Assembly: GCA_949283575.1 (NCBI GenBank)
Contig: CASDSU010000028.1
Span: forward strand, 128,849 to 192,848
DNA length: 64,000 bases
Source: an uncultured Eubacteriales bacterium
Lineage (GTDB): Bacteria; Bacillota; Clostridia; TANB77; UBA1234
Reading direction: 5' to 3'
Position numbers and translations under genes: made by a program. Of this stretch, positions 7,475 to 27,260 are shown in pieces. Each line of letters begins with the position of its first letter. Position 1 is the first letter of the stretch. The notes under the pieces were generated by a model. That model was not told the origin of the DNA and made no database searches. It worked only from the letters and a program-made list of their open reading frames with translations.

Positions 7475-7479
7475 TTTAG

Positions 7480-7971: not shown

Positions 7972-7977
7972 TTTAAA

Positions 7978-9807: not shown

Positions 9808-9859
9808 AATAAAAGGATACTTTCTTACTTGCACCAATTGTGCGAGTAAGAGTGATAAA

Positions 9860-9882
9860 GGTGCGACAAAAAATGTCGCACC
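9860..9882. repeat. perfect hairpin GGTGCGACA-AAAAA-TGTCGCACC; member of a local repeat family (other copies at about 12680-12705 and 13320-13345)
   Basis: 9-bp stem with A5 loop, preceded by ACCAATTGTGCGAGTA; a similar unit ACCAATGGTGCGAGTA plus GTACGACATTTTTCGTCGCAC lies at 12668-12705. Confidence 0.55.
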
Positions 9883-9927
9883 TTTGTCTTGCATCAACAG
9901 CACACTTTTTACATATTTTTTATCGGT

Positions 9928-10164: not shown

Positions 10165-10180
10165 CTAAAATAGGTTGAAA

Positions 10181-10245
10181 ATAATGCTTATAGCAATGAG
10201 CTGAATATTTGTAGAAGGTTTATGTGGAGAAGAGAAATACTAAAA
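10181..10245 (+). repeat. relic of a second relaxase gene 3' end (about 63 bp, roughly 93% identical to 9128..9190)
   Basis: AATGCTTATAGCAATGAGCT[G]AA[T]ATTTGTAGAAGGTTTATGTGGAGA[A]GAGAAATACT matches the last codons of the relaxase at 7978..9276. Confidence 0.65.
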
Positions 10246-10396
10246 AAGAAACAAATATATTAAAAACACAAGAAATTTCTAAAGTCATTTTTAAAAGGAA
10301 AAAAGAAAAAGTACGATAATTATAAAAATGGCAAAGAAATTAAATCTCTGCCATTTCTTTATAACGAACTATTTTCACTCCTACTGATAATATTAA

Positions 10397-11533
10397 TTAC
10401 ATATTTTCAAAAAACAATTCATAAGTATTATCTGATTCATTTAAAAATTTTAATTCTACACACGAAAAATCCAACTCTTTTGGTATTTCAAAAACAACAT
10501 AAAATTGAGTAAGGTCTCCTTCGCAGTATTGCTTCTTTATTTCTCTTGGGATTATTGTTGCTCTAGTACTTCCTTCCAAAGCATTTTTTAAATCATAGGC
10601 TGAAACTGTAACTTCTGGTTTTACAGCAGAAAATGTTGATGTTGAATTAAACGGGAAATCTATATCAGTTAAATCTACATCAAATAATGCACAATACAAA
10701 TTTTTATTTTCATTTATTGTGTATTTAGGGAACAAACTTGTACCGCCATATCCTTCTGCAAAAGCTATATTATATTTACCAGCTTTTTCAAAAGCATTAT
10801 TATAATCTTCGATAATTTCAATAGCTGTGTTGCCACTATATATTTCTTTCATTTTTAAATGTAATGAACTCATTGAAATTTTATTATTTCCATTTTCATC
10901 AAGTCCAGTACCTGAGTGAAGATTAACAGTACCAGCTTGTCCTTTTAGGGCTGGTGTATCTGTATGAACCTTTGCTAAGGAAGCAAAACTTTCTTTTGGC
11001 AATTCTGGAATTTGAGTACTTGGTGTTATTCCTCTATACGTATCATCAAGTATTACAGAATTTGTGTTTCCATCCCATTTGATTTCTATATCAAACAAAT
11101 TTGAGATTGCACGTACAGGCAAATATGTAGTTCCTTGATAAGAAAGAGGATATACTACATTTTCGTTTACATCTTTAAAAGTTTGATACATTCCATCGTA
11201 TGAAACTCTTATTTTGTCATTTAATAGAACTTGAATATTTTCTGTAGGTTCAGCAATAAAATTTTCAATTGATTGCGCTGAAATTTTGTCTAATTCGCCT
11301 TCACCTAATTCTACAGCATTCAATTTTTGATTCCAATTAATTCTAATATTAAATATGCTAGAAATTGATCTTATTGGAAGATATGTAGTTCCTTCATAAG
11401 ATATAGGATAAACCTTCTGTCCACTTACATTTTTAAATTCTTGAATTTCATTATTATACAATATTTTCAATCCTTTGTTTAAAACTACATTAACATCTTG
11501 ACTTGCATATACGCAATTAGAGCAGAAAAACAT
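10397..11533 (-). CDS. secreted protein with two copper-amine-oxidase N-terminal-like (stalk) domains; probable true start upstream, disrupted by a T8 homopolymer
   Basis: Two repeats of Y.GTTYLP.R.IS..F...I.W. Removing one T from the run at 11553-11560 gives MKRIFLVISILAMFFCSNCVYA signal peptide in frame. Confidence 0.65.
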   Translation of the reverse strand: MFFCSNCVYASQDVNVVLNKGLKILYNNEIQEFKNVSGQKVYPISYEGTTYLPIRSISSIFNIRINWNQKLNAVELGEGELDKISAQSIENFIAEPTENIQVLLNDKIRVSYDGMYQTFKDVNENVVYPLSYQGTTYLPVRAISNLFDIEIKWDGNTNSVILDDTYRGITPSTQIPELPKESFASLAKVHTDTPALKGQAGTVNLHSGTGLDENGNNKISMSSLHLKMKEIYSGNTAIEIIEDYNNAFEKAGKYNIAFAEGYGGTSLFPKYTINENKNLYCALFDVDLTDIDFPFNSTSTFSAVKPEVTVSAYDLKNALEGSTRATIIPREIKKQYCEGDLTQFYVVFEIPKELDFSCVELKFLNESDNTYELFFENM

Positions 11534-11641
11534 TGCAAGTATCGAAATTACTAAAAAAAATTCTTTTCATATTTCATACCTCTTTTCTTTCGATTTGTTA
11601 ATTATATTATATCATTTTTAACTGTTACATTATAGAAAATT

Positions 11642-12508
11642 TTATTGTTTTAAGAATTCTTTACAAGCTTGATAAGAATATGTTACAAGATTTGCTAAAG
11701 ATTTATAATTCATTTCATAAAATGGTTTAACAAATTCGGTACTAATCTCTTTGCTGTTGTATGTTATAGATAAATGAGAGTATTTCTTAATAATTTTATC
11801 TAATTCTTCTTTTGATTTTAACTCATTTTCGTTAATTATAAATTTGCAATAAATTTTATATGTTGTTACTGGTGTACGTCGTATTTTTTTAGATACAATC
11901 TTAAATTCGAAGTAATTTCCATTACTATCTTTATAACCATTTTTATTTTCTAATTCTGAAATTTGTTTTCTTAAATTTCCAATAGCAAATTCTTCATCTG
12001 GAATAAATTTTTTTGAAGATTTTTTCTGTGTTTTTAATATATCCACTTGATTTTTCAGTTTTTTAATTTCTTCTCTTTTATTAAGACATTCGGTCAACTG
12101 ATATCTTTCAAATAAATATTCATCTAAATTATAATACCAAATACTTTTATAATAATCTGAAATTACAACTGTTGCTATGCCAACTCCGCAAGCAATTGGA
12201 AGTATAACTGCAATAATTATACTTAATACATTATTAATAGTTATTAAATTTATTATAAATGATATTAAAGATATAAATATAATTCCGAATACACCTAAAA
12301 ACACTTTGACTCTAGTTTCTTTTTTATTCTTTTCTTTCAATTTCTTGTATTCTTCATCTGAAATCTGTGTTATTTCCTTTATATCTTTATATCTTTTTCT
12401 GTAATCAATTCTTTTACCTATATCTAATCCTAATCCACTTCTAATCTCACTTGTTATTAATAAACCTATAAATATTATTATTAAATATATTATTGTTTTT
12501 AAGTTCAT
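11642..12508 (-). CDS. membrane protein with coiled-coil region (hypothetical)
   Basis: N-terminal TM, second TM pair, K/E-rich helix; RBS present. Confidence 0.5.
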   Translation of the reverse strand: MNLKTIIYLIIIFIGLLITSEIRSGLGLDIGKRIDYRKRYKDIKEITQISDEEYKKLKEKNKKETRVKVFLGVFGIIFISLISFIINLITINNVLSIIIAVILPIACGVGIATVVISDYYKSIWYYNLDEYLFERYQLTECLNKREEIKKLKNQVDILKTQKKSSKKFIPDEEFAIGNLRKQISELENKNGYKDSNGNYFEFKIVSKKIRRTPVTTYKIYCKFIINENELKSKEELDKIIKKYSHLSITYNSKEISTEFVKPFYEMNYKSLANLVTYSYQACKEFLKQ

Positions 12509-12724
12509 TTTTAAACTCCTTTATTTAAACTTCGTCAATCACTAATATATATTCTAAAATTATGTTATTTTCCATATAGCAACCATCCATTTTCGGCCGA
12601 GGTACATTTTTTAGTAATTATATGAGATATCTTGCAGTACAATTATTTATATATATTTCTCGTACCAATGGTGCGAGTATTGTACGACATTTTTCGTCGC
12701 ACATTTTATGAAATTATCTATGCA

Positions 12725-13333
12725 TTAACTTGATTTTAAACAATCTAATAATTCCATCCAACTTCTTTTGTCACATTCAAAACCATAATCTTCCGCATTT
12801 TCGAGTTCGAATATCATTTTTTCTTTTATCTCATTGGTTATTACCTCAACATTAGCAATAATAAAACTAAGAATTACACCTGTTATATATGTTTTTCTTC
12901 CTAAACCGTATTTTATTGCTTCTAGCATTAATAGTTCCAATTCATTGTTCGTAATGTTGATATCTATAACACCATCAAATTGTTTATCTTCAAATGATTG
13001 TTGCAGAGCTTTTTCTATCTTATTAGCAAAAGTAAGCCACTTCTCTTCATTATCTAAAGGTCCATAGAGTGGACTTGCGTTTCTTTCTTTGATATCTCTA
13101 ATAAAAATCATTTTCATTTTTTCTGACATATAATCAAGATTATCTATAACTATTTTCTGAAAAGTATCTAATTCAATATATTTAGCAGTATCTCTTAATT
13201 CGTTTCTTAATACACTAGCTAAAATTAATTCAAAATATAAATTTTTATTATTTATTTTCATAAAATCACCACTTTCTTGATTTATTATCTGTGAAATTTC
13301 CTGTGAAGTTATCTGTGCAGAATAATGCGACAA
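12725..13333 (-). CDS. hypothetical protein
   Basis: ORF with plausible internal start MKINNKN; no recognisable domain. Confidence 0.45.
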   Translation of the reverse strand: MSHYSAQITSQEISQIINQESGDFMKINNKNLYFELILASVLRNELRDTAKYIELDTFQKIVIDNLDYMSEKMKMIFIRDIKERNASPLYGPLDNEEKWLTFANKIEKALQQSFEDKQFDGVIDINITNNELELLMLEAIKYGLGRKTYITGVILSFIIANVEVITNEIKEKMIFELENAEDYGFECDKRSWMELLDCLKSS

Positions 13334-13344
13334 AAGTGCGACAT

Positions 13345-13413
13345 TACTCGCTCACTACTCGCTTTTACTCGCTCATTACTTGTTTCTACTCGCTCATTAC
13401 TCGCTTATTACAT
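13345..13413. repeat. tandem array of about 6.5 copies of a 10-11 bp unit TACTCGCT(C/T)(A/T)(C/T), helical-phase periodicity
   Basis: tactcgctcac|tactcgcttt|tactcgctcat|tacttgtttc|tactcgctcat|tactcgcttat|tacattc. Unit is the reverse complement of the GTGCGAGTA/GAGCGAGTA motif found at 9848 and 12676. Confidence 0.75.
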
Positions 13414-14871
13414 TCTTATTTTATATTTTCCTTTTGGGTCATTTTGAGATATTCCGTTCCAATAAATTATATTTTTATTTTTTAATTCAGCTAAAATTTT
13501 TCTTGTTGTAGAAGGGCTTCTTTCAATAAAATTTGCGATTTCTGAGTTTTTGGCACCGTCTCTATCTGCTAAAAATTGTAAAATTTTTCTTTCTGTTTCA
13601 TTGAAATTGTTCCAATTATCACTTATTGCACTATTCTTCTTTAAATCATCTTCTTGTCTTGCGTTTCTAGATAAATAATTATTTTTTAAAGTCAAAATAA
13701 ATATATCACTACTTGTTACTTTAAATTCGGGTTCTTCTAAAAAATATTTTTTCATTTCTCTATAAATTCTTGGTATTCCTTCGCTTAGTTCTCTTACAAC
13801 ACCAAATTCAGTTAAAGTTCTGGCTATAACACGATTTCTAGAGTATCTTTCTGTTTGTAAATTCTCTAAAGTTACTAATCCAGCAAGTTTTCCAGGACTT
13901 CTAATTTCCATTCTGTTGTTATAAATAAAAATCTTTATATATTCTCCACCCATTACATAATTTCTATGTGTAACAGCATTTGTAACACCTTCAACATAAG
14001 TGAATTCAGGGTATTCAGGTATAGTTTCAAATTCCCCTTCTGAATTTAAGTGTGTAGAATCTCTTAACTGTGTATGAACAAATTCTGGAACTTCCTTTAT
14101 TGCTTTATATAGTGGCAAGGCAAAAGTTTTATCTTTAATAATATTTAAATCTTTTCCGGGTAACATTTCATTTCCATCAAATTTTACAATTCTAATTCTG
14201 GCTGTAGGCAAATAAATTGATGGATCTTGAGCAAATAATAGTACGCCTGCTTTAGTTAATAATTTTTGTCCATTCACAATACTTTCTCTTAAAAAACCTC
14301 TAGCTCTTAAGACTTCTTCATCAGATTTATCTTCAGCGTCTATTTTTTGTTTATATATGCTTAAAACTTCCTTATCTATTATATCAATTGTAGCATAAGG
14401 AACCAACTCATCTTCAAATGAAACATCGGGTCTATCCATTTTCAATACTTGGATTTGCTCATCTGTTAATTTGATAGTTGAGTCACCTCGTCTTAAATAC
14501 ACTTCATCTTTTTGATTTCTAATTAATTTATTTAAACTAATCGCAATATGAAGTAACAAAACAGTATCATCTTCATTTTTTACATTTACTACGCTTAATT
14601 CTTCATATTTGATTTCTGGTTCTGCATTTAAATATTGAACACTTTTTCTAAATTGATTTAACTTATCTGGACAACTATTAAATCCAACAATCTCTCCATT
14701 GTTAGAAATTCCTACAGCAAGTATTCCTCCATCTGCATTTGCCATACCTGCAATATGATTTGCAAGGTCTAGTTCACTTATACTTGAACTTTTTCTATCA
14801 AAATTTTGATTTTCTCTGTTATTACATAAATATTCTAATGTAATAGCAGGATTTATTTTAGATGAAATCAT
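13408..14871 (-). CDS. AlbA_2 (Schlafen-like) / HATPase_c_4 / winged-helix putative ATP-binding regulator (RecG-C-terminal-like family)
   Basis: Architecture typical of the 'putative DNA-binding / ATP-dependent DNA helicase RecG C-terminal' family; C-terminal wHTH; operonic with the upstream gene (14-nt gap). Confidence 0.6.
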   Translation of the reverse strand: MISSKINPAITLEYLCNNRENQNFDRKSSSISELDLANHIAGMANADGGILAVGISNNGEIVGFNSCPDKLNQFRKSVQYLNAEPEIKYEELSVVNVKNEDDTVLLLHIAISLNKLIRNQKDEVYLRRGDSTIKLTDEQIQVLKMDRPDVSFEDELVPYATIDIIDKEVLSIYKQKIDAEDKSDEEVLRARGFLRESIVNGQKLLTKAGVLLFAQDPSIYLPTARIRIVKFDGNEMLPGKDLNIIKDKTFALPLYKAIKEVPEFVHTQLRDSTHLNSEGEFETIPEYPEFTYVEGVTNAVTHRNYVMGGEYIKIFIYNNRMEIRSPGKLAGLVTLENLQTERYSRNRVIARTLTEFGVVRELSEGIPRIYREMKKYFLEEPEFKVTSSDIFILTLKNNYLSRNARQEDDLKKNSAISDNWNNFNETERKILQFLADRDGAKNSEIANFIERSPSTTRKILAELKNKNIIYWNGISQNDPKGKYKIRM

Positions 14872-14885
14872 AAGTTACCTCCTAA

Positions 14886-15815
14886 TCACTTATTTTTTCT
14901 TTTTCTAGTATTAGCTATATTAGCCTTATTTCTACATGTTGTTGTATCATATTCAGCTTTTAAATTTTCAGCTATAAATGGTTTTCCACAATATTTACAT
15001 AGCCTAACTTCTGTTCTGCCATTTGTTTCGTTTAATAATAACATTGCATTAATTGCAGCTCTCAACGAATGAAAATTCCACTGAAATTTTATTTTTCCAT
15101 TTTCTATACCATATTTAAAATTAATTTTATATACTTCTTGGTTAAGTATCGTTTCGGCATAAAATTCTTTTAAATCAGGTTCTAAGTTACCATATAAATA
15201 AGTACCAATTACTCCTTTAGTGACATATACGCTTTCAGCAAAATCTATAATTTCAGATATTGGCTCTGCATAATTCTTTGAAAAAATAAAATCATTTAAA
15301 CGGTCACCTTCAACTTGTATAAGATTAGCGTCTAAACCAGAATTTCGGTGCAAATCATTAACTGTCATTTTTTTAGACCAATCAATCTTTTTATCAGGCC
15401 AAAAATATCTTTGCTCAAAATCTATTATTGATAATGAACTATCTAATTTTGAAGAATATGAGATTTCATTATCTTTCTCTAAAAAGTCAAAATTTTTAGG
15501 AAAATATCTAAAATTGCCTAACAACCCATATTTTGATACAAAATCTAACACAACTTTTTGAAATTCTTTTGTTTTACTCTTTGCTTCATAAGTTAAATTA
15601 GTATTGGTAAATTTTATAGTTTCATCTCCATTTACCATTTCGCCTATAATCATTAAATCCTTTAAAATATCATTTTTAATTTCAAAAGGGTCATAGGTAA
15701 TAGGCACTGCGTTTTCATCAGGTAAAACATAAAGAATATTATTATTTTTTTCAATTTTATATTTACTATACTTACACCATTTTGACATAAATTCGATTTT
15801 TTCTTCTTTTATCAT
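14886..15815 (-). CDS. hypothetical protein with C-terminal zinc-ribbon-like motif (CKYCGKPF...C) and basic tail
   Basis: ORF with RBS; CxxC...C at C-terminus followed by RKRKNK; no known domain recognised. Confidence 0.5.
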   Translation of the reverse strand: MIKEEKIEFMSKWCKYSKYKIEKNNNILYVLPDENAVPITYDPFEIKNDILKDLMIIGEMVNGDETIKFTNTNLTYEAKSKTKEFQKVVLDFVSKYGLLGNFRYFPKNFDFLEKDNEISYSSKLDSSLSIIDFEQRYFWPDKKIDWSKKMTVNDLHRNSGLDANLIQVEGDRLNDFIFSKNYAEPISEIIDFAESVYVTKGVIGTYLYGNLEPDLKEFYAETILNQEVYKINFKYGIENGKIKFQWNFHSLRAAINAMLLLNETNGRTEVRLCKYCGKPFIAENLKAEYDTTTCRNKANIANTRKRKNK

Positions 15816-16018
15816 TTCATCACCTCAAAAAAATTCATAAAAACACAAGAAAAATCTTGACTTATTTCGAATGATAATATATATTTGAAATAAGTTAGAA
15901 ACTATAATATTTCTAACACATTATAGTTTGTTTCTAAGATATATTTAAATTATATATCAAAAGTATTACAAAGTCAAATATATCTAAAGTAAAAAATGAT
16001 GAAAGGAGGGATGAACAC

Positions 16019-16222
16019 ATGAGAGATAAAGCTTTAGAATCAAAACCAATGCCAGTACTGTACTCAACAGATGATGTATGCAAAATGTTTCATATCAGTA
16101 GGCTTACTTGTCTAAACCTATTTCGCAGAAATGACTTTCCAGCTCAAAAGTTTGGACGAGCCTACAAAGTGGAAGCAAATGCACTAAATGAATATCTTAG
16201 CAAAAGACATATCTTGGCATAA
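16019..16222 (+). CDS. xis: excisionase-family DNA-binding protein (Xis, MerR-like HTH)
   Basis: 67 aa, small basic HTH protein immediately upstream of the integrase; RBS AAAGGAGGGATG. Confidence 0.65.
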   Translation: MRDKALESKPMPVLYSTDDVCKMFHISRLTCLNLFRRNDFPAQKFGRAYKVEANALNEYLSKRHILA

Positions 16223-16362
16223 AAAGAAAGAAGACTTAGAAAATGGCGTTTCTAAATCTTCAACACGAACCAGGGAATGTCCCAAGCTCTAACCTATGAG
16301 AAGATTATAACACAATAAAGTAATAGTTTTCAAGACATTCCCTTAAATTTTAAGAGGGATCT

Positions 16363-17778
16363 ATGAAAAAACTTATCGAAGGACGCGACTATTCAGTCAA
16401 TAAGTTCGTAACAAAAGATAAAAGAATTAGCTCTAATAGAAATATATGTCCTACTTGCAAAGATTGCAGCCATAAAAAACTATGTAGCAACAGAGCAACT
16501 CTATACACAATGAAGAAATGCGATAAATGTAGAGAATGCTTAGATAACGACAATTGTGATAAATATTATATCTATGTTAGATATAAAGCCGAAATCTTGA
16601 ATTTAGGGCATAATGAAATAACAGGAGAGCAAATAAGAAAACAATTCAGTGGAAAAACTAAAGAAGAAGCAGTTCAAAATTTATATAAGGCCTACGATGA
16701 AGTAATCAATAATAAGTCCAAAGAAAAAGAGACAAAAATCATTGAAGTATCAATAGTTAGCATAGCAACATCTCTTGAAGAAAAGAAACTCAAGAAAGGA
16801 CTTATTAAATCAAATGGATACAAAACGAATGCAGACACAATAAATAGAATTGGTAAAAACAAATTTGCAAATATTCCAATTCAAAATGTGACTAAAAAGC
16901 AAATTGAAGATTTCTTAGAAGAAGAAAGAAAAAACTTTAATTCTACTATCGGAAAGGATTTCAGAATTCTTAAAGGTGCATATAAAGAGGCACATAGAAA
17001 AGGTTTAATCAAAGAAAATTACTTTGACTCTGATGATCCAATAGAAAAGCCAAAAAGTCATAAGCAAGAAAAGAAAGTTGTAGCTTTAACAGCAAAAGAA
17101 CAATATCTTTTAGAAAGATATATCAATGAAAATTATTCAAAATATAACAACATCTTATTGCTATGTTTATACACAGGAATGCGAATTGGAGAAGTGTTAT
17201 CTTTAAGTCCTGATGCTATAACTTATGACAGTAAAAATGGCACTATCAATATAACAAGAACTTTAACAAGAGATAAAAATGGCAAAGTTATTATAGGAGA
17301 TGTGCCTAAAACTAAGAATGGTATTAGAAGAGTTGACCTAAGAGAAAATTCTAAAAGAGTTCTAGATAATGCACTTAAAGATATGAAGCCTAATCCTTAC
17401 AATGTAATATTTGCACAAGAAAATGGAGAGCTATACAAAGAAAGTATAATTAACAATGCTTTTAAAAGAATTGCAAAGAACGCAGGAATCAAAGTTATAA
17501 CTACCAAGAAGAAAAAGAAGAATGGAAAAACAGTAAATCTAAAATCTAGCACTGTAAATACACATATGCTTAGGCACACCTTTGCAACAAGATGTATCGA
17601 GGCAGGAGTTCCACTTCATATTCTTCAAAAAGTATTAGGTCATTCAAAATTCAAACAACTATTGATACATACGGAGATATCTACGATTACTTCAGGCAAA
17701 AAGAAATGGAAAAGTATGATGAATATATGGCAGAAATACACAATTCATTTAAGAAAGAATGCAAAAAATAAAATATAA
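16363..17778 (+). CDS. int: tyrosine-type site-specific integrase with Cys-rich N-terminal domain; C-terminus frameshifted at an A4 run (17646-17649) before the catalytic Tyr
   Basis: Conserved HMLRHTFATR and VLGHS motifs. The canonical ending ...IQTTIDTYGDIYDYFRQKEMEKYDEYM... is only in the +1 frame, recovered by inserting one A. Confidence 0.75.
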   Translation: MKKLIEGRDYSVNKFVTKDKRISSNRNICPTCKDCSHKKLCSNRATLYTMKKCDKCRECLDNDNCDKYYIYVRYKAEILNLGHNEITGEQIRKQFSGKTKEEAVQNLYKAYDEVINNKSKEKETKIIEVSIVSIATSLEEKKLKKGLIKSNGYKTNADTINRIGKNKFANIPIQNVTKKQIEDFLEEERKNFNSTIGKDFRILKGAYKEAHRKGLIKENYFDSDDPIEKPKSHKQEKKVVALTAKEQYLLERYINENYSKYNNILLLCLYTGMRIGEVLSLSPDAITYDSKNGTINITRTLTRDKNGKVIIGDVPKTKNGIRRVDLRENSKRVLDNALKDMKPNPYNVIFAQENGELYKESIINNAFKRIAKNAGIKVITTKKKKKNGKTVNLKSSTVNTHMLRHTFATRCIEAGVPLHILQKVLGHSKFKQLLIHTEISTITSGKKKWKSMMNIWQKYTIHLRKNAKNKI

Positions 17779-18381
17779 AAGTCAAACTAAATATTTCTGG
17801 AACTTAAGTTCCAAATAAGCATAAAATGCGAAAGACTTGAAATGATTTACGTGTTTTTACAAAAAAAGATTGGTGGTGAAATCACGTGATTACAATGCGA
17901 AAAAGCATAACAAATTTAAGAGATAGCAAAAAAGAGTTTATTTTAGATTGTAAGATTAGAAATCTAAATGTAGAAACAGACGCATTTACAATTCATCTAT
18001 TGCCTGATGATAAAATGAGACCGTTTTCTAATAAATACTAAATATAAAAAAGGACAAGAGCCCGGAAGAAGACTCATTGTCCTTTGCTATTTCTTAAAAA
18101 TTCTCTTGTGATTATATTGCAATTTTCTTAAATTTAAACCCAATCGCATTTTTTCCTTATTTGTAAGATTAAAAGCGTTGCTAATATATCCTTTTTAATC
18201 TCCACATTATAATCATCTAAATTTCTTGCTTTTTTCATCTATTTCCAAAAATACAAAAAATACATTGTAATAAATAACAAACTATATTTTATTACATTTT
18301 CTAGCATTAACTTTATTTCTTTTTTTAAATATTTTTTAAACTTTCTTTTAAATACGGTGTCATCCTCAATTTAAATCATCT

Positions 18382-18684
18382 CTACATATAATCCTTCGTT
18401 CCTTGTATAACCCTCTTCATAAAATTCATATACAAAACTGCTTCTTCCCTTTTTTCATACCCATCAAAAACATCAATCAAACATTCTTTTATCGAATCCA
18501 TTTCTTCTTTAAAATATTCTAACTCAGGAAGCTCTCTAATCATCTTTTCAAGCGAACTTGCAAACTCCAATTCATTTTCTGTTACCATTAACTCATAAAC
18601 TTCCTTAATAGTCTTCTCAATCATACTAACTTCTGTTTTCATTTTCATTATTTTTGGAACCAGCGTATTCGTATTTAATTTCAT
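18382..18684 (-). CDS. small helical acidic protein, partner of the upstream multi-AAA gene
   Basis: 100 aa; RBS AGGAGGAG; 12-nt gap to upstream gene. Confidence 0.5.
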   Translation of the reverse strand: MKLNTNTLVPKIMKMKTEVSMIEKTIKEVYELMVTENELEFASSLEKMIRELPELEYFKEEMDSIKECLIDVFDGYEKREEAVLYMNFMKRVIQGTKDYM

Positions 18685-18696
18685 AACAAGCTCCTC

Positions 18697-21600
18697 CTAA
18701 TCTAAATCTTCTGGTAATATATTTACAAGTGTATCCTTATCCATTTCTGTCATCATAGAAAGTCTCAACGCCTGATTATTTAACGATCTTTCAAATACAT
18801 TTCTAACATATCTACCATTACCAAATCTCACATCCTGCTTTGCTACTGCAAGTATCATTTTTAACTTTTCTTTCGCTTCTTTTGTCAAATTATATCCATT
18901 TTTTTGATACATTTTATCAGCAATAACCATTAGTTCATCTACTGTATAATCTTCAAATTCTATTACATTTGGGAACCTAGACATAAGTCCCGAATTAACA
19001 TCTAAAAATTCAGTCATCTCTTTACTGTATCCTGCAAGTATTACTACAAGTTTATCACGATTGTCATCCATTAATTTTATTAATGTGTCAATTGCTTCTT
19101 TTCCGAAATCACTATTTCCTCCTTGAGATAACGCATAAGCTTCATCAATAAATAGCACACCATTAAAAGCTTCTTTTACTTTTTCAGTTGTCTTCATAGC
19201 TGTTTGCCCAACGTAGCCAGCAACAAGACCAGCTCTATCTGTTTCAACTAATTTGTCAGTCGAAATAACCCCAAGTTTGTATAGCATATTTGCAACAGCT
19301 CTAGCCATCATGGTTTTTCCTGTACCTGGATTTCCTTTAAAAATCATGTGAAGTGATTGTTCATCATTTACGATTAGTCCCATTTTCTTACGCTCATTCA
19401 TGATTTTTATTCTAGCAGCAAGCATTCTAATGTATTGTTTTACAGATTCTAATCCAATTATGCTATCAAAAATTTGTTCATAATCATATTCACTATTTTC
19501 AGTTTCGTATTTCTTGCCTACATCTTCTGGCAAAATAATATTAATATCATTTAATGCTACATCTTCTAGCATCGCAATTCTTGTACTTTGATTTCTAACA
19601 ATTTCATCAATAAGATTCCTAACCATTCTTCCATTTCCAGAATAAGTAGCTGCTGTTTTCTTCATAAATTCTAATTTTTCAGCGGCAACAGCTCTTGCTT
19701 CATCTGTTATCTGGAACCCTCTCGAGGCAATCATTTTATCAAAAATTTGTGCAAGCTCATCAGCTGTATAATCTGGGAAATCAAGTTTAAGTGGAAATCT
19801 AGATTCTAAACCAGAATTTGCTTTTAAGAAATCACCCATTTCTTTTTCATAGCCTGCAAGTATTACTAAAATTTCTCCTCTATGATCTTCCATAAGTTTT
19901 ATTAATGTGTCAATTGCTTCTCTTCCGAAATCACCATCTCCGCCTTGTGATAACGAATATGCTTCATCAATAAATAATACTCCACCTAGTGCACTATTAA
20001 ACACATCAGTTGTTTTTGGAGCGGTTTGTCCAACATATTCAGCAACTAAATCTGCTCTCGCAACTTCAACAATATGACCTTGTCTTAAAAATCCCATTTC
20101 TTTAAGCATTTGTGAAACAAGCCTTGCTACTGTTGTTTTACCAGTTCCAGGATTTCCTATAAAAATCATATTCAAAGACTGAGTAACATCGGTTGTAACT
20201 CCAAGACTTCTTCTCTTTTCTTGAGCTTTCAAAATATTATATTGATTTCTTAAAAAGTCTTTAACATTATCAAGACCAATTATTTTCGAAAGCGCTTCTT
20301 CTAAATCAAAATTTTCTTTCTTTTCAAGTTCAAAATCTACAAGCTTAATTAATGAATAATCGACTTCATTCTCTTTAACGATTCTAACTGCTTGATTTGC
20401 CATCGCAGATTCCATTACATTTCTAACAAGACGACCGTTTCCATTAGGATTTTTTCCTGTATAAATTTTCGATTCAAAAAATTCTATAAGTGGCTCATAA
20501 CAATTAACATCAATCTTATATTCATTTTGCTTTGCAATATTTTCAGCAATTCGATACATCTCATCAGCGGTATAATCTTTAAAATCAATTATATTTTGAA
20601 ACCTTGATTTAAGTCCGGTTGCTAAGCGAAGCATATCATCCATTTCATCTTTATATCCAGCAAGAATTACAACTAAATTATCTCTATTATCTTCAATCAT
20701 TTTAAGCAAAGTCTCAATTGCTTCTTTTCCATAATCATCCGTTTTTGAATTCAGCAACGAATAAGCTTCGTCAATAAACAGAACTCCTCCAAAAGCTGAT
20801 GCAACGCATTCCCTTGTCATTTGAGCAGTTTCACCAGGATGACTTCCAACTAAATTTGCTCTACTTACTTCTACAAAATGTCCTTTTTCTAGCATCCCAA
20901 GTGCACTCAAATACTCAGCAACAATTCTTGCAATAGTAGTTTTACCTGTACCAGGATTACCTGTAAAAATCATATTAAGCGGAAGTGGCGCAACTCTCAT
21001 TCCCGCACGCTCCCTCATTTTTTGAGCAGTTATATTATCCTCTAAACGATATAAATAATCTTTGACTTCATTAAGTCCAATTATCGAATTAAGTTTAGCT
21101 TTAACAATAGTAAGTCGATTCGAAACCCTCGAATCAGCTGCATTATCTAGCAATAATTTTTCTCCATTAGACTCTATAAAAATTTGCTCATCTTCAACAC
21201 CAATTATATATTGTTGTTTATTACTGATTTTTCCTTTCAATTTATACTCAGAAATTGGTCTAAAAATCCTGTGATCAATTAACAAATTAACACCATTAAT
21301 TCCAGTCGCACTAGAATATGTATTTCTCAAATATTCTTCAAGTGAAAACATATAATCAATATTAATATCTAAATCCTTTTTACATTTTTTCTTAAAATGT
21401 TCTATAAGAGAATTTATCATTTGATTAATTTCTTCTTCAGTAAAATCATTCGCGGTAATAACGTCCTTAATATTTTCTGCAATATCAAGTCCTATTACAT
21501 CTTCAAATTCATGCTCAGGTTTATTTGAAATGAAAACAAAATATTCTCCATTTGTTTTTATCTCAAGAACACCCTTAGGAGTATTAATTTCTATTCTTCC

Positions 21601-22593
21601 ATACTTACACAGGTTCTTAACAAACGTCTTACACGATTCGCTTCCTAGCTCAAAATTCTGAAAAATCATTACTTCTGAACCATCATTAACAGCATCACAA
21701 TATGTATTAACAAAATTTCCAAGAGACTCCTCTTTTTTAAACATTACAAAATCGAAGACTTTTGGCTCACCATTTAAAATCTTTTCCTTTCGCATGTGCA
21801 TAACTAGGTCATCAATTAGATTACTAACAAATACACTTTCATTTGAATAAATTGTAATGATATTTTTCAAGAAATTAGCATCTTGTTGTTTTATGGTATA
21901 TGGTCTTTTAAATGCAAGAACCAAATTACTTACAAAATCTTTTCTCGATATTTTTTCTAAAAGTGATGTCTCTATCTCATCAAAAATTTGATTCAAATCC
22001 TTTTTCTTCTTAGGCTTCTCTTCTTCTTTTTCTGATTCAGGCGAATAGATTGCTTTATACCTTTTTTCATCAATTTTAAAATTAGTTTTGTATAAATCTA
22101 TAAGTTTAACTTGTTCTGCAGTTATTTCTCCACCTTTTTTCATAAAACTAATAATCATTCTAAGTACGCTATCTTCATAAAGCTCTTGCTCTGCAAGCGG
22201 CATGGAAGCGCACGTTTCATCGATAACAGTTTTTAATCTCAAAATATAATTTTTGTTACTTTCATGCCCGCCAAAAGAGAATCCTTTTTTACTTTCTTTT
22301 TTATAAAAATTATATAAATATTCATATTGCTTTTTTGTTAAATTTTGTTTTCTCAAAAAATCATCCAAAAAAGCTACAAACTCTTCTTCTCTTCCCCCCT
22401 CATGAGCACGCGCAATATTGGCAAACAAACCTGTAAAGCAACATGACACCTCAGGTGGCATCTCTTCACTCTTATATAATTTGCCAGCTTGAATACGTAT
22501 TTCATTATTACAAATTGGACAAATCATCGTTGTCTTATTTGAAGAAGTATTTATTTCAGAATTACAGTATGGACATACCGGAATTTTAGCCAT
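18697..22593 (-). CDS. 1298-aa protein: N-terminal zinc ribbon plus three tandem CbxX/SpoVK-type AAA+ ATPase modules
   Basis: CPYCNSEIN...ICPICNNEI zinc ribbon. Three Walker A GNPGTGKT(T/M), three Walker B LFIDEAY(S/A)L, and the VILAGY motif of the CbxX/SpoVK clade repeated three times. Confidence 0.75.
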   Translation of the reverse strand: MAKIPVCPYCNSEINTSSNKTTMICPICNNEIRIQAGKLYKSEEMPPEVSCCFTGLFANIARAHEGGREEEFVAFLDDFLRKQNLTKKQYEYLYNFYKKESKKGFSFGGHESNKNYILRLKTVIDETCASMPLAEQELYEDSVLRMIISFMKKGGEITAEQVKLIDLYKTNFKIDEKRYKAIYSPESEKEEEKPKKKKDLNQIFDEIETSLLEKISRKDFVSNLVLAFKRPYTIKQQDANFLKNIITIYSNESVFVSNLIDDLVMHMRKEKILNGEPKVFDFVMFKKEESLGNFVNTYCDAVNDGSEVMIFQNFELGSESCKTFVKNLCKYGRIEINTPKGVLEIKTNGEYFVFISNKPEHEFEDVIGLDIAENIKDVITANDFTEEEINQMINSLIEHFKKKCKKDLDINIDYMFSLEEYLRNTYSSATGINGVNLLIDHRIFRPISEYKLKGKISNKQQYIIGVEDEQIFIESNGEKLLLDNAADSRVSNRLTIVKAKLNSIIGLNEVKDYLYRLEDNITAQKMRERAGMRVAPLPLNMIFTGNPGTGKTTIARIVAEYLSALGMLEKGHFVEVSRANLVGSHPGETAQMTRECVASAFGGVLFIDEAYSLLNSKTDDYGKEAIETLLKMIEDNRDNLVVILAGYKDEMDDMLRLATGLKSRFQNIIDFKDYTADEMYRIAENIAKQNEYKIDVNCYEPLIEFFESKIYTGKNPNGNGRLVRNVMESAMANQAVRIVKENEVDYSLIKLVDFELEKKENFDLEEALSKIIGLDNVKDFLRNQYNILKAQEKRRSLGVTTDVTQSLNMIFIGNPGTGKTTVARLVSQMLKEMGFLRQGHIVEVARADLVAEYVGQTAPKTTDVFNSALGGVLFIDEAYSLSQGGDGDFGREAIDTLIKLMEDHRGEILVILAGYEKEMGDFLKANSGLESRFPLKLDFPDYTADELAQIFDKMIASRGFQITDEARAVAAEKLEFMKKTAATYSGNGRMVRNLIDEIVRNQSTRIAMLEDVALNDINIILPEDVGKKYETENSEYDYEQIFDSIIGLESVKQYIRMLAARIKIMNERKKMGLIVNDEQSLHMIFKGNPGTGKTMMARAVANMLYKLGVISTDKLVETDRAGLVAGYVGQTAMKTTEKVKEAFNGVLFIDEAYALSQGGNSDFGKEAIDTLIKLMDDNRDKLVVILAGYSKEMTEFLDVNSGLMSRFPNVIEFEDYTVDELMVIADKMYQKNGYNLTKEAKEKLKMILAVAKQDVRFGNGRYVRNVFERSLNNQALRLSMMTEMDKDTLVNILPEDLD

Positions 22594-22735
22594 TTAACAC
22601 ACCATCCTTCTATTTTATATAGTAACATTTTTATAAAAAAGAGTATAGCTATTTTTTAAAAACTATTAAAAAAATGCCATATTTATGATATAATGACCGA
22701 TATTAAAATAATCGTTATTTTTATGGAGATGATTG

Positions 22736-23709
22736 TGAAAAATATGAAACCATTTTTTAGTTTTATTGTTCCTGTTTACAAAGTTGAACAATACTTAAGA
22801 CAATGCGTTGATAGCATACTGTCTCAAGAATATAAAGATTTTGAATTAATATTAGTGGACGATGGTTCACCTGACAATAGTGGCAAAATTTGCGATGAAT
22901 ATGCTAAAAATCATGAAAATGTCTTTGCTTTCCATAAGGAAAATGGAGGACTATCTGACGCTAGAAATTATGGATTAAGTAAGGCTACTGGTGAATATAT
23001 ACTTTTCGTAGATTCTGATGATTTTATTTTTGAAAACTCATTAACTGAAATTGCAAAAATATGTCAAAAATCTAGTGCTGATTTAGTATTTTTAAAAGGT
23101 TTTAAATTTTATGAAAATAATAGCTCTTTAGATGAATTAGACCAAGATATTCATATAGATGATTTTAATAGCAAAGATAAAATATTAAAATATTTAAGTT
23201 CTTTAAATAAGTTTCCCGGAAGTGCTTGTACTAAAGCCATTAAGAGGGAATTTTTAATAAAAAATAATTTAGTCTTTTTAAAAGGTTTACTATCTGAAGA
23301 CATTGATTGGATGATTCGTGTTCTAAAAGAGATTTCATCATGCACTTCTATTAATGTTCCTTACTATTGCTATAGACAAAATAGACTAAATTCAATCTCA
23401 AACTCAATTAGCGCTAAAAATATAAATTCGATTTTAAAAATCATTTCTACTCACGCCATTTTAGATGTTACAAATAAAGAAGATGAATATATTAATAACT
23501 TTTTAGCATATGAATATATGATTCTTATTGCAAATTATGCATCTTTAACCAAAGAAGAAAAAAACAAAGTAGTCTCAGATGTATATGAATATAAATGGTT
23601 ATTAAAATATAAAAACAATTCTAAAGTAAAATTAACATACATAATAAAAAATATTGTAGGAATAAAATTAACTAGTAAACTTCTATACTGCTACTTAAAA
23701 CATAGATAA
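22736..23709 (+). CDS. family 2 glycosyltransferase
   Basis: FSFIVPVYKVEQYL...LILVDDGSPDNS...DSDD motifs (DxD); start either GTG 22736 or ATG 22745. Confidence 0.8.
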
Positions 23710-23748
23710 AACATATTGTCATTCGCAACAAAATAAGGAGAATAAAAT

Positions 23749-24921
23749 ATGAAAAAATTCATCAAAAAAATTATTATAAGATTAAATCTTATTGATATAT
23801 TGGGTATCTTTTTTATAATCTTTAGAGTTTTTCCTATCAAAAACAATAAAATCGTTTTTATTAGTTATTTTGGAAAAGGATATGGCGATAACCCAAAATA
23901 CATTGCTGAAAAACTAATTGATGCAAACAAAAATTATGATTTGGTATGGCTTGTTAATAACACTTCTGATACCGCTTTCCCAGATGAAATAAGAAAAGTT
24001 AAATTACGTAGTCTAAAAGCTTTTTATGAACTTGCAACAGCTAAAGTTTGGGTTAATAACAGTAGATTTCAAACATACATTCTAAAAAGGAAAAAACAAT
24101 ATTACATTCAAACTTGGCATGGTTCTTTAGCTTTGAAAAAGATAGAATATGATGCAGAAGATAAACTTAATGAATATTATAGAAAAGTTATGAAACATGA
24201 TACTAAACAAATTGATTTAATGTTGTCAAATAGTACATTTTGTACAGAAATGTATAAACGAGCTTTTAAATATTCTGGTGAAATTCAAGAATTTGGTTCT
24301 CCTAGAAATGATATTTTAATTCAAGATCATCAAAAATTACGCAATAAAATTATAAACCTTTTCCAAATAAAAGAAGAAAAAATCTTGTTATATGCACCAA
24401 CATTTAGACAAGCATACACAAAAAATCCTTATGATATAGATTTTGAAAATTTGAAAAATGTCTTAGAAAAACAAACTGGTCATACTTGGAAAATAATAAT
24501 TAAGTTACACCCTATAATTGCTACAAAATCTGAATTGATTAACGGTATGGAAAATGTTATTAATGCCTCTAGCTATGGTGATATTCAAGAATTAATATGT
24601 GCATCAGATTTACTAATTACAGATTATTCTTCTACCATGTTTGAAGCAATGATTGCAAATAAACCAGTTGTATTATATGCGAATGATATTGAAAATTATA
24701 ACGAAGAAAGAGGTACATATTTTAATCTACAAGAACTACCTTTCCCGTTATGTGAAAATAATGACGAACTATTTAAGTTATTAAATACTACTAAATTGAA
24801 AGACATTATTAATAGTTATAGCGACTTCAAAAAACAAGTTGGATTAAATGAAACCGGAAAAGCAAGCCAAGAAGTTGCTAATAAAATAATGGAAATAACA
24901 AGTCATGAAAAGAGGAAGTAA
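23749..24921 (+). CDS. CDP-glycerol glycerophosphotransferase (TagB/TagF family)
   Basis: IQTWHGS...LKK signature and C-terminal TagF-like catalytic region; RBS AAGGAGAA. Confidence 0.75.
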   Translation: MKKFIKKIIIRLNLIDILGIFFIIFRVFPIKNNKIVFISYFGKGYGDNPKYIAEKLIDANKNYDLVWLVNNTSDTAFPDEIRKVKLRSLKAFYELATAKVWVNNSRFQTYILKRKKQYYIQTWHGSLALKKIEYDAEDKLNEYYRKVMKHDTKQIDLMLSNSTFCTEMYKRAFKYSGEIQEFGSPRNDILIQDHQKLRNKIINLFQIKEEKILLYAPTFRQAYTKNPYDIDFENLKNVLEKQTGHTWKIIIKLHPIIATKSELINGMENVINASSYGDIQELICASDLLITDYSSTMFEAMIANKPVVLYANDIENYNEERGTYFNLQELPFPLCENNDELFKLLNTTKLKDIINSYSDFKKQVGLNETGKASQEVANKIMEITSHEKRK

Positions 24922-26321
24922 TGAGTAAAAATAGTGAATTAGCTAAAAATACTTTTATAATATTTATTGGAAAATTTTGCACTCAATTCATTTCATTCTT
25001 ATTAATTCCGATATATACAAATCTTTTGCCCACGACAGACTATGGATATATTGATTTAATTCAATCATATATTTCATTATTAGTGCCAATTTTAATATTA
25101 AGACTTGATTCTGGAATTTTTAGATTTTTGATAGATGCAAGAAATAATAATGACGAAAAGAATTCAATTGTAACTAATACTCTTTTCTTCACATTATTGC
25201 AGATAATATTATTTACTGTAATATTTATTGTAATTAATTCGTTCTTTGATATTAAATATGCATTTAATATTGGAATAAATATAATTTTCTTATCTATAGC
25301 CAGTATTTTACTACAACTTACAAGAGGAGTTGGGGATAATATTGGGTACTCTATAGGTAGCATAATATCAGGAGTTTTAACTATTTTGCTTAATATACTT
25401 TTTATAGTAAAATTAGGGAAAGATAGTTCAAGTATTCTTATCGCTTCTGGAATCGCAAATATCATATGTTCATTATTTTTATTTTTTAGAAATAAAGTTT
25501 ATAAAAGTATTAGCATTAAAAATATTAATAAACCTAAACTCAAAAGTATGTTAAATTATTCATTGCCAATGATTCCTGACGGATTATCTTGGTGGATAAT
25601 AAATGTTTCTGACAGAAGCATAATATCTTTTTTTATAAATACAGCAGCTAACGGAATTTATGCTGTATCAAGTAAATTTTCGAATATTTTATCAAGCTTA
25701 TTTCTTATCTTTAACATGTCATGGCAAGAAAGTGCATCTCTACACATAAACGATAAAGATAATGAAGAGTTCTTCGGAAATATTTTTAATACTACCTATA
25801 AAATATTCTTCTCAGCTTGTATTGGTATAATGGTGTTAATGCCTATCGTTTTCGAGTGGCTAATTGGTGATGATTATGTTGAAGCTTATATTTATATTCC
25901 ACTTTTATTATTAGCAAACTTATATAGCGCAGTTGCAAATGTAATCGGTGGTATATACATTGCGAAAAAAAATACTAAATCTGTTGCAAAAACCACCTTA
26001 TTTGCCGCTTTAATTAATCTCGCAATAAATATACTTATGATAAAAAAATTCGGCTTATTTGCCGCAGCTATATCAACTTTATTATCTTATATTGCTTTAG
26101 CAATTTATAGATATATTGATGTTCAAAAATACATAAAATTAAAACTTGATTATCGTATCTTTATTCTAACAATGTTAATCTTTTGTATAAGTGGTGTTTT
26201 ATATTATTTAAATACATTTATATTAAACATTATAAATCTTATATTAACTGTTTCTATTGTTTTAATATTGAATTTAGATATAATAAAAATTTTTATAAAT
26301 AGAGTAAGGAGGAAAATATGA
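24921..26321 (+). CDS. polysaccharide/teichoic-acid flippase (Wzx-like, MOP superfamily)
   Basis: 12-14 predicted TM helices, typical N-terminal region of oligosaccharide flippases; start overlaps upstream stop. Confidence 0.7.
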   Translation: MSKNSELAKNTFIIFIGKFCTQFISFLLIPIYTNLLPTTDYGYIDLIQSYISLLVPILILRLDSGIFRFLIDARNNNDEKNSIVTNTLFFTLLQIILFTVIFIVINSFFDIKYAFNIGINIIFLSIASILLQLTRGVGDNIGYSIGSIISGVLTILLNILFIVKLGKDSSSILIASGIANIICSLFLFFRNKVYKSISIKNINKPKLKSMLNYSLPMIPDGLSWWIINVSDRSIISFFINTAANGIYAVSSKFSNILSSLFLIFNMSWQESASLHINDKDNEEFFGNIFNTTYKIFFSACIGIMVLMPIVFEWLIGDDYVEAYIYIPLLLLANLYSAVANVIGGIYIAKKNTKSVAKTTLFAALINLAINILMIKKFGLFAAAISTLLSYIALAIYRYIDVQKYIKLKLDYRIFILTMLIFCISGVLYYLNTFILNIINLILTVSIVLILNLDIIKIFINRVRRKI

Positions 26322-26755
26322 AAAGAATTCTAACATATGGAACTTTTGACCTACTACATTATGGTCATATAAGATTATTAAAGAGAGCAAAAGAATTAGG
26401 AGATTATTTAATTGTTGCCTTATCAACAGATGAATTTAATGCTATAAAAGGCAAAAAAGCTTATCATGACTACGAAACAAGGAAAAAAATGCTTGAGGCT
26501 ATCAGATATGTTGATTTGATCATTCCAGAAAACAATTGGGAACAAAAAAGAAATGACGTTATAGAATATAAAGTCGATACTGTTGTAATGGGATCTGATT
26601 GGGAAAACAATGAAAATTTTGAATGCTTAAAGGATATTTGCGAAGTTACTTATTTACCTAGAACTGAAGGCGTATCTACTACAAAAATTAAAAAAGATTT
26701 AGGATTACAAGAACAAGAAAATAATGTTAATCAAATTCCTACTCCTTCAAAATAA
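26318..26755 (+). CDS. tagD: glycerol-3-phosphate cytidylyltransferase
   Basis: YGTFDLLHYGHIRLL (HxGH), RYVD, near-colinear with Bacillus TagD; RBS AGGAGGAAAA. Confidence 0.85.
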   Translation: MKRILTYGTFDLLHYGHIRLLKRAKELGDYLIVALSTDEFNAIKGKKAYHDYETRKKMLEAIRYVDLIIPENNWEQKRNDVIEYKVDTVVMGSDWENNENFECLKDICEVTYLPRTEGVSTTKIKKDLGLQEQENNVNQIPTPSK

Positions 26756-26772
26756 TAATTTTTATAAAAAAA

Positions 26773-26812
26773 GAGCGAATATGAGATTCATTCCACATTC
26801 GCTCCTTTTTTT
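26773..26812 (+). terminator. rho-independent terminator after tagD
   Basis: GAGCGAAT...ATTCGCTC stem followed by CTTTTTTTTAT. Confidence 0.5.
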
Positions 26813-26822: not shown

Positions 26823-27260
26823 TTATAACTTTTGAATTTTAGTTCTTACCGTCTTTAATTCACGTACTCTATTTTCATATCTTCTACTTAGTGTAGAAAT
26901 TTGCTCTTGATATAATAATTTCAATTCTTCATATTCTTCATTTGTCAGAAGAGTTAAATCATATCCATCTGTTTCATAACGTTTTTGAATTTCAGCAACT
27001 TTTGTTTTTATATCAACATACGTATTTTCAGATGTTTCAACATTTTCTTCTTTATTAATCTCTGCTTGTTTTATTTCCTGTGTTTTATTCTCCACTTCTG
27101 TATTCAAATTCGCTTGCACTAATGCCTCTTCTTTTACCACCGGAATTTCTGTGTTATTAGTCTTCTTCTTTGAAAAAATAGTTTTAAAAAAGTTAGCTAT
27201 TTTAGTAAAAACACTTTCTTTCACAGGTTCTAAATACTTATCTTCTTTTTTGTTATCCAT
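26823..27260 (-). CDS. hypothetical coiled-coil protein
   Basis: RBS AAAAAGGAGAGAGA; K/E-rich. Confidence 0.5.
   Translation of the reverse strand: MDNKKEDKYLEPVKESVFTKIANFFKTIFSKKKTNNTEIPVVKEEALVQANLNTEVENKTQEIKQAEINKEENVETSENTYVDIKTKVAEIQKRYETDGYDLTLLTNEEYEELKLLYQEQISTLSRRYENRVRELKTVRTKIQKL

Follow-up and report, generated by a model that had tools for sequence, protein, structure and literature searches.

A chromosomal AAA+ protein of uncultured gut Clostridia with three SpoVK-type modules behind a degenerate Clp/Hsp100-type module

SpoVK, a protein of about 320 amino acids, belongs to a clade of AAA+ ATPases that also holds CbbX, the activase of red-type RuBisCO, and EccA, an ATPase of type VII secretion. 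The characterized members of this clade are single-module chaperones with one client each, and the clade has been described as one of dedicated chaperones with narrow client ranges (PMC11513918). [quoted passage not shown] Several AAA+ modules on one chain are found in the Clp/Hsp100 proteins (ClpB, ClpC, ClpA and Hsp104), which have two. To our knowledge, the characterized stacked AAA+ machines have at most two tiers. Here we describe a gene that encodes four AAA+ modules in a stretch of 64,000 nucleotides from an uncultured Eubacteriales bacterium (contig CASDSU010000028.1, positions 128,849 to 192,848), which we call the window. The gene (18697..22593, minus strand, with the stop codon at 18697..18699 in the open reading frame (ORF) list and translation) encodes a protein of 1298 amino acids, referred to below as the AAA+ protein, in which a C4 zinc ribbon is followed by a helical domain, a Clp/Hsp100-D2-like module without Walker motifs and three SpoVK-type modules. 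An earlier note on this DNA had proposed that the gene may be cargo of a neighboring mobile element, as a defense or anti-defense system or as a chaperone or remodeler. We find that the gene is chromosomal, vertically inherited and outside the element, and that the protein is confined to uncultured gut Clostridia of one small clade. The reading that we favor, and hold to be moderately probable, is that the AAA+ protein is a vertically inherited stand-alone protein-remodeling ATPase of the SpoVK-CbbX-EccA clade that probably assembles into a multi-tier ring; chaperone or remodeler thus remains the best of the functions proposed.

The C-terminal 806 residues consist of three SpoVK-type modules, at residues 493-762 (20308..21117), 763-1035 (19489..20307) and 1036-1298 (18700..19488), all on the minus strand, with a mutual identity of 43-51%. 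Pfam recognizes three AAA (PF00004) and three AAA_lid_6 (PF17866) stretches, and the NCBIfam models for SpoVK, EccA and CbbX each match three stretches, so that the three complete modules described in the earlier note are borne out. The catalytic motifs are intact in all three modules, with Walker A (GNPGTGKT) at residues 545, 813 and 1087, Walker B (FIDEAY) at residues 606, 874 and 1148, and the SRF arginine finger at residues 663, 931 and 1205. The two clade features named above are present in every module, the GY signature as the ILAGY sensor-1 motif (residues 643, 911 and 1185) and the sensor-2 arginine in the motif GNGRxVRN (residues 718, 986 and 1258). In the motif NSGLxSRF, the asparagine stands six residues before the arginine in modules 2 and 3 and is replaced by threonine in module 1; the published description gives a position four residues upstream (PMC11513918). 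By homology, each of the live modules is predicted to be a competent AAA+ ATPase.

A full-length search recovered 24 clusters of full-length orthologues with 63-99% identity, as well as more distant relatives with several modules. The Tyr-Val-Gly pore loop of modules 2 and 3 is kept in every orthologue aligned. The pore loop of module 1 reads His-Pro-Gly and is His-Pro/Ser-Gly in most orthologues, so that the aromatic residue is lost there. Module 3 is the best-conserved part of the protein (mean identity of 85%). The ratio of nonsynonymous to synonymous substitution rates (dN/dS) against the closest relative, at a locus labeled L006, is 0.05 for the whole gene and 0.02-0.08 across its domains, with 0.08 for the degenerate module, and these values speak for functional constraint.

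The earlier note had described the residues ahead of the three modules as a region of roughly 500 amino acids that begins with a zinc ribbon. The zinc ribbon and the approximate length (about 490 residues) hold, and the region was found to contain in addition a helical domain and a fourth, degenerate AAA+ module. The protein starts as MAKIPVCPYC...MICPIC, and the zinc ribbon occupies residues 1-42 (22468..22593, minus strand). Its four cysteines, C7, C10, C25 and C28 in the motif C7-P-Y-C10 ... C25-P-x-C28, are invariant across 18 aligned orthologues, many zinc-ribbon Pfam models match weakly, all of them under the gathering score, and short beta strands are modeled at this position. A word-indexed search with residues 1-492 returned only two proteins. 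A profile built from the N-terminal regions of the 18 orthologues, when compared with the sequences in the PDB, matched only the D2 module of ClpC, ClpB, Hsp104, ClpA and Skd3 (profile positions of about 351-475, best E-values of 3e-5 to 4e-5). An AlphaFold2 model of residues 1-493 (mean pLDDT of 85) gave the same result in Foldseek, where the top 50 matches were all Clp-type NBD2 structures at E-values of about 1e-11; the alignments to isolated ClpB NBD2 structures span about 300-350 columns, and their TM-scores, normalized by target length, reach 0.56. According to profile and Foldseek together, both the D2 large subdomain and the D2-small lid are present in residues ~200-480 (21154..21996, minus strand). 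The Walker A position of this module reads IYSNESVF and the Walker B position IFQNFE, and canonical Walker A and B motifs were found in none of the 25 sequences of the alignment (the AAA+ protein and its 24 orthologue clusters), because of which we regard the module as a pseudo-ATPase.

Between the zinc ribbon and the pseudo-ATPase module lies a helical domain (residues 43-185; 22039..22467, minus strand). Its residues C52, H110 and C128 are invariant. In a model of residues 1-200 (pLDDT of 82), seven helices come after a small beta ribbon, and the top Foldseek match of this model, 2ou3_A, was non-significant (E-value of 0.064). The fold similarity weakly suggests a TerB-like domain of the kind found in the COG3793 and PG1108 families; the Pfam TerB model matched none of the 18 orthologues, even at E-values up to 10.

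The comparison with Clp/Hsp100 proteins shows likeness in the D2 fold and in the presence of several AAA+ modules on one chain, together with clear differences. Walker A and B are gone from the D2-like module, which stands first in the chain, whereas D2 is last in Clp/Hsp100; the chain has four modules, against two in Clp/Hsp100; the live modules are from another clade (classical/FtsH-related); and neither a Clp N-domain, nor an M-domain, nor a ClpP-binding loop was identified in the AAA+ protein. Inactive rings are used for assembly in other tandem AAA+ proteins, for example D2 of NSF and D1 of Pex1/6.

Among the single-module families, the three modules score highest against SpoVK (TIGR02881), with 276, 314 and 305 bits for modules 1, 2 and 3, and each of them aligns end to end with the 261-position model, starting at model position 2-3, so that the ~45 residues ahead of Walker A, where a bihelical hairpin is a feature of the clade, are covered. 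Walker A, Walker B, GY, arginine finger and sensor-2 arginine are common to SpoVK and all three modules, and they likely also share a mode of action, in which a dedicated chaperone driven by ATP serves a narrow range of clients. All three scores are nevertheless below the equivalog cutoff of 422.95 bits. The whole protein reaches 864 bits and passes the cutoff only because three sub-threshold modules are summed, and for the same reason automated annotation could wrongly label proteins of this kind 'stage V sporulation protein K'. CbbX (TIGR02880) and EccA (TIGR03922) are sister families built on the same AAA and AAA_lid_6 module; per-module scores against them are 206-238 bits, under the cutoffs of 459 and 467, respectively. 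CbbX and EccA are single-module proteins, unlike the AAA+ protein, which also lacks a TPR domain (no Pfam match). SpoVK too has a single module, with a short N-terminal domain (residues 2-41, PMC11513918) in place of the zinc ribbon, helical domain and D2-like module seen here, and no RuBisCO or type VII secretion genes occur among the scanned neighbors in the window and in the loci of relatives. Judged by these scores, the AAA+ protein is not orthologous to any characterized sporulation or secretion factor.

These scores also bear on the possibility that the protein is a SpoVK-like chaperone of sporulation or of the cell envelope that activates a cytosolic cell-wall enzyme, as SpoVK promotes the activity of MurG at the forespore. 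The modules are closer to SpoVK than to CbbX or EccA, members of the clade have been argued to act on enzymes of envelope biosynthesis (PMC11513918), and genes of the teichoic-acid type adjoin the AAA+ gene in the window. However, every module is under the SpoVK cutoff, and the short beta-strand N-terminal domain of SpoVK is replaced by ~490 unrelated residues. The cell-wall genes, which encode a GT2 glycosyltransferase, a CDP-glycerol glycerophosphotransferase, a polysaccharide flippase and a cytidylyltransferase, make up a 4.2-kb insertion (22633..26809) with a GC content of 0.25-0.26 that is missing from L006, where only ~150 nt are found at this place. Because this low-GC insertion is absent from the closest relative, the adjacency is recent and accidental, and we consider a SpoVK-like role very unlikely.

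To find the wider family, a hidden Markov model of the N-terminal region was searched exhaustively against 1.84 billion cluster representatives with a threshold of E <= 0.001, which gave 307 representatives. Apart from the orthologues and a 1016-amino-acid variant (P0057 and P0058) with two SpoVK-type modules that shares the zinc ribbon and helical N-terminus, most of the best 150 of these 307 match only profile positions ~190-485, that is, the pseudo-ATPase module. SpoVK-type modules were counted by their Walker A motifs in members of at least 600 amino acids among the best 150. One module is present in ~40 representatives (typically 650-700 amino acids), two modules in ~11, three modules in ~9 and four modules in 2 representatives of up to 1620 amino acids, and of 60 wider family members, 58 have a pseudo-ATPase module without Walker A. 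By profile and motif content, the AAA+ protein is thus a member of an unnamed family that combines a Clp-D2-like pseudo-module with one to four SpoVK-type modules, and the remark in the earlier note that proteins of this type normally carry one module is correct for the characterized proteins and incorrect for the protein's own uncharacterized family. An example of the family is WP_271714101.1 from Anaeromicropila herbilytica ('AAA family ATPase'), which has the pseudo-module profile and SpoVK-type modules in common with the AAA+ protein. Most members differ from it in having one module and a short, different N-terminus, and one sampled member has TPR repeats; the zinc ribbon with the helical N-terminus is limited, within the family, to the small clade of the AAA+ protein and P0057/P0058. 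The only names carried by family members are 'AAA family ATPase' and 'AAA+ ATPase domain-containing protein', and a literature search on AAA_lid_6 and on CbbX, EccA and tandem AAA+ proteins found nothing on multi-module SpoVK-type proteins. The gene context of four relatives (P0028, P0029, P0066 and P0074) showed no neighbors in common.

One relative deserves separate mention. P0030 (L024, 6001..10158; 1385 amino acids) combines three AAA modules of the SpoVK type with a trypsin-like domain at the C-terminus, and its operon encodes a TPR protein, an HSP70 and proteins without assigned function. No peptidase association was found for the SpoVK-EccA-like clade (PMC11513918), and P0030 may be an exception to that statement.

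When the modules were compared individually by BLAST, modules 1, 2 and 3 of the AAA+ protein were closest to the first, middle and last modules, respectively, of other family members, with an identity of 55-65% between modules in the same position as against the 43-51% among the modules of the AAA+ protein itself. Because the modules resemble those in the same position of other proteins, the tandem arrangement is old and position-specialized. In the mechanism that we propose, a platform made up of the zinc ribbon, the helical domain and the pseudo-ATPase module would recruit or position a single dedicated client, or would nucleate assembly. ATP would be hydrolyzed by the three live modules, which would pull on the client or remodel it by means of the pore-loop tyrosines in modules 2 and 3. 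The assembly would be a homohexamer with a separate ring for each type of module, so that one tier would be inactive and three would be active. A more elaborate picture, which we offer tentatively and at a good deal less than even confidence, is a four-ring AAA+ 'tower' of one inactive Clp-D2-like tier and three active, position-specialized SpoVK-type tiers, belonging to a family that tunes the length of its channel; middle tiers would be added or dropped, for one to four SpoVK-type tiers and two to five rings in total.

The three live modules could also lie side by side in one ring, with two chains making up a pseudo-hexamer (a dimer of trimers) comparable to dynein, midasin or engineered covalently linked ClpX trimers. 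Three modules per chain are half a hexamer, arginine fingers and catalytic motifs are kept in all three, and position-specific module types would suit a fixed order around a ring as well as a fixed order of tiers. Against this arrangement, the family has members with one, two, three and also four modules, and four do not fit a six-membered ring; moreover, the missing pore-loop aromatic residue of module 1 would leave two gaps in a six-subunit staircase. We think the pseudo-hexamer unlikely and favor stacked rings because the family tolerates one to four modules, of which four does not divide a six-membered ring, because the degeneration of the pore loop is confined to the first module, and because modules of the extra module's type are stacked in Clp/Hsp100.

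The genomic setting was analyzed by comparing the window with the corresponding loci of relatives. The neighboring integrative mobilizable element adjoins the 3' end of tRNA-Gln(TTG) and contains an integrase and an excisionase-type helix-turn-helix protein; judging from the translations, it also appears to contain a replication initiator, a MobC-like protein and a relaxase. Its extent was defined from an empty site in the same species and not from repeats. This contig, L018, is 99% identical to the window and aligns to window positions 20510..18336 and 18222..17846, and ~100 nt farther on the alignment resumes at 5985..5721, which holds tRNA-Gln and tRNA-His. Because of these breakpoints the element is taken to span ~5986..17848. 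L018 keeps the AAA+ gene, the 100-amino-acid ORF behind it and the spacer without the element, and the same gene pair is present without the element in L006, whose homology with the window extends from 22632 to 18369 and picks up again at 5987. The spacer from this ORF to the end of the element (17849..18381) is chromosomal and mostly kept in same-species contigs that lack the element: L018, L019 and L020 match window positions 17846..18222 and 18336 onward at 97.6-99.4%, with ~110 nt between them unaligned. It contains a terminator-like hairpin found by a terminator scan (18075..18058, minus strand). The earlier note had described the AAA+ gene as immediately flanking the element and had asked whether it lies inside once the ends are defined; it is indeed a neighbor, with 533 nt between the stop codon of the 100-amino-acid ORF and the element end, and it lies outside.

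Attachment (att) sites were also sought directly. A direct-repeat search (5700..19000) and an alignment of the tRNA-Gln flank against 17779..18400 gave weak matches, namely a 14/16 nt match and a 7-nt ATGATTT present at both element junctions, which were set aside.

The locus was then scanned in one genome per species, which gave 11 loci besides the window, all from metagenome-assembled genomes (MAGs) of uncultured Clostridia from animal and human guts. In all 11 the AAA+ gene lies between tRNA-Gln(CTG) and tRNA-Gln(TTG)/tRNA-His, with a U32 peptidase and a short-chain dehydrogenase as more distant anchors. The orthologue is intact and full-length in 10 of the 11 and frameshifted in the eleventh, so that the gene is at the same locus in 12 of 12 species compared (11 intact, 1 frameshifted). 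The closest relative, L006, has 93% protein identity, and in comparisons across species the identity of the AAA+ protein follows that of the U32 peptidase (93 vs 91%, 72 vs 71%, 67 vs 68%). The GC content of the AAA+ gene (0.31-0.33) fits the backbone, as against 0.25-0.28 for the element. A plasmid collection gave no match to the AAA+ protein, and a phage collection gave one weak contig match with 19.6% identity, restricted to the pseudo-ATPase module, and no orthologue. The conclusion of vertical inheritance is drawn from the empty site, the conserved tRNA interval, the identity that tracks the U32 peptidase, the backbone GC content and the lack of a plasmid or phage orthologue, and the proposal that the gene is element cargo does not hold. 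Clear orthology to a characterized sporulation or secretion factor, conserved at this position in related species without a mobile element, had been named in the earlier note as evidence against its interpretation; the conserved position without an element is what we observed, and orthology to a characterized factor is not (276-314 vs 423 bits).

Other elements occupy the same interval. At the position that the element takes up in the window, L019 and L020 carry another integrase (75% identical), L002 has an unrelated mobilizable element (Mob_Pre/TnpV/FokI-type), and L018 has an IS1595 transposase. The locus is thus a hotspot of integration, with the AAA+ gene as its conserved flank.

One related species departs from the pattern of intact orthologues. 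In L001 to L005 and L009 (for example L001, 252..4204) the orthologue is broken by two frameshifts into three overlapping ORFs of 606/625, 522 and 198 amino acids, and the breaks are common to five independent assemblies. It looks like a fixed pseudogene.

The 100-amino-acid ORF (18382..18684, minus strand), which like the AAA+ gene was found where the earlier note had placed it, starts 12 nt past the AAA+ stop codon, and its ribosome-binding site (GGAGGAG) overlaps that stop codon, because of which the two genes are likely co-transcribed. The description of its product as a small acidic partner agrees with a manual count of 21 acidic and 15 basic residues. The dN/dS of the partner against L006 is 0.11. 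Homologues fall in 21 clusters, at least 6 of which were confirmed to adjoin the AAA+ gene, and no other contexts turned up; among the 12 species compared, 6 carry the partner behind the AAA+ gene. In the others, the next gene encodes a VWA-like protein (three species), an unrelated 200-amino-acid protein or a DUF84 NTPase, or there is none. The earlier note had suggested profile searches with the N-terminal region and the partner, and these identified Clp D2 for the former (E-value of 3e-5) and nothing for the latter: Pfam, NCBIfam and PADLOC gave no family match (best PADLOC E-value of 0.015), and a profile of 16 partner sequences matched only FliS and FlaA in the PDB, non-significantly (E-values of 0.17-0.3). 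We infer a lineage-restricted, accessory role for the partner (as adaptor, as regulator or as the client itself) and not that of an obligatory subunit.

The length of the partner is close to that of WXG100 proteins and the EccA model matches all three modules, so that an EccA-like chaperone of type VII secretion with the partner as a WXG100-type substrate comes to mind. We regard this as highly improbable. Each module reaches just 213-238 bits against EccA, far under the cutoff of 467, there is no TPR N-domain, and no EssC/FtsK-type ATPase or other type VII secretion gene lies within 10 kb in the window and the loci scanned for neighbors. The partner has no Pfam match and no tryptophan, none is conserved in 16 homologues, and no WxG motif is present.

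The VWA-like genes downstream of the AAA+ gene are found in L008 (8686..10011), L010 (14099..15289) and L014 (14102..15289). They encode proteins of 395-441 amino acids with weak VWA (CoxE-like) matches, reminiscent of the MoxR-type pairing of AAA+ and VWA proteins.

On the upstream side, a gene of 145 amino acids without a Pfam match (26823..27260, minus strand; identified with jackhmmer over the locus ORFs and blastn breakpoints) directly precedes the AAA+ gene in L006, L008, L010 and L014, and in the window the 4.2-kb insertion parts the two. A consensus scan upstream of the AAA+ gene gave a sigma-70-like promoter candidate, TTAATA / 16 nt / TATACT (22642..22669, minus strand), although sigma-70-like consensus matches are no more frequent than in shuffled sequence. 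No gene is a universal neighbor of the AAA+ gene across the loci compared.

A role in anti-phage defense or another conflict system, in which the gene would belong to a tRNA-flanked defense island and the partner would be a sensor or effector, was also weighed. Different mobile elements integrate beside the gene in the hypervariable interval between tRNA-Gln(CTG) and tRNA-Gln(TTG)/His (window, L002 and L018), the triple-AAA core has a distant relative that carries a fused trypsin-like domain and shares its operon with HSP70 and TPR proteins, the AAA+ gene is decayed in one species, and the PADLOC-DB 2.0 models for IetA, TRIP13 and DolB match at 73-81 bits. These PADLOC matches, however, and that of the NCBIfam anti-phage model IteA (82 bits against a cutoff of 510) reflect generic AAA similarity over the three modules, and neither the AAA+ protein nor the partner showed a nuclease, protease, toxin or membrane-effector domain. 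Presence at one locus in every species compared, an identity that tracks the housekeeping neighbors and a dN/dS of 0.05 resemble a core gene and not the patchy distribution of a defense gene, and the plasmid and phage searches described above point the same way. The defense or anti-defense role put forward in the earlier note found no specific support, and we consider such a role quite unlikely.

Four observations weigh against our reading of a vertically inherited, multi-tier remodeling ATPase. No conserved neighbor points to a client, and the downstream gene varies by species. The arguments for stacked tiers are indirect. The frameshifts shared by five independent assemblies mean that the gene is dispensable in one species. 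Finally, the locus is a hypervariable interval between tRNA genes, where defense genes tend to collect. On the other side, the neighborhood-conservation check proposed in the earlier note came out in favor of a stable chromosomal position, with the gene kept between the same tRNA genes in the 11 MAG loci.

Several features of the element and of the rest of the window were recorded along the way. The tyrosine recombinase gene of the element (16363..17778, plus strand) has a frameshift near 17640..17660, close to its 3' end. Frame 0 reads ...LGHSKFKQLLIHTEIS..., and another frame continues ...IQTTIDTYGDIYDYFRQKEM..., which matches the intact C-terminus of the 75%-identical L019 integrase; because of this match, the called product of 471 amino acids is seen to diverge from the conserved C-terminal segment. 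It is in the C-terminal segment that the catalytic tyrosine of tyrosine recombinases is expected. The frameshifted sequence is 100% identical in an independent assembly, L017, and the element may be immobilized. The element also contains four tandem 21-nt repeats (13344..13417) just upstream of a Schlafen/AlbA_2-HATPase_c_4 gene, and a 66-nt direct repeat, 94% identical (9123..9188 and 10176..10241), by which the relaxase gene has its 3' end duplicated 1 kb downstream. Far from the element, window positions 43225..45396 (minus strand) have a GC content of 48-54% in a genome of ~30% GC and encode a highly repetitive acidic protein of 723 amino acids, rich in Pro, Thr and Glu, with TPTP runs, repeated EEQPEVVTEDVIDLGAPVVEETV units and an N-terminal hydrophobic segment; it is probably a surface protein.

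For surveys of mobile elements and defense islands, the locus is a reminder that an unusual ATPase beside an integrase can be the conserved flank of a hotspot and not cargo. For the SpoVK-CbbX-EccA clade, whose characterized members have a single module each, the findings add chains with up to four live modules; the placement of these modules behind a dead Clp-type module and their specialization by position are new within the clade. If the modules stack, the complexes would have more tiers than any AAA+ machine studied so far, and the family would offer a natural system for learning what extra tiers add, be it processivity, force or division of labor.

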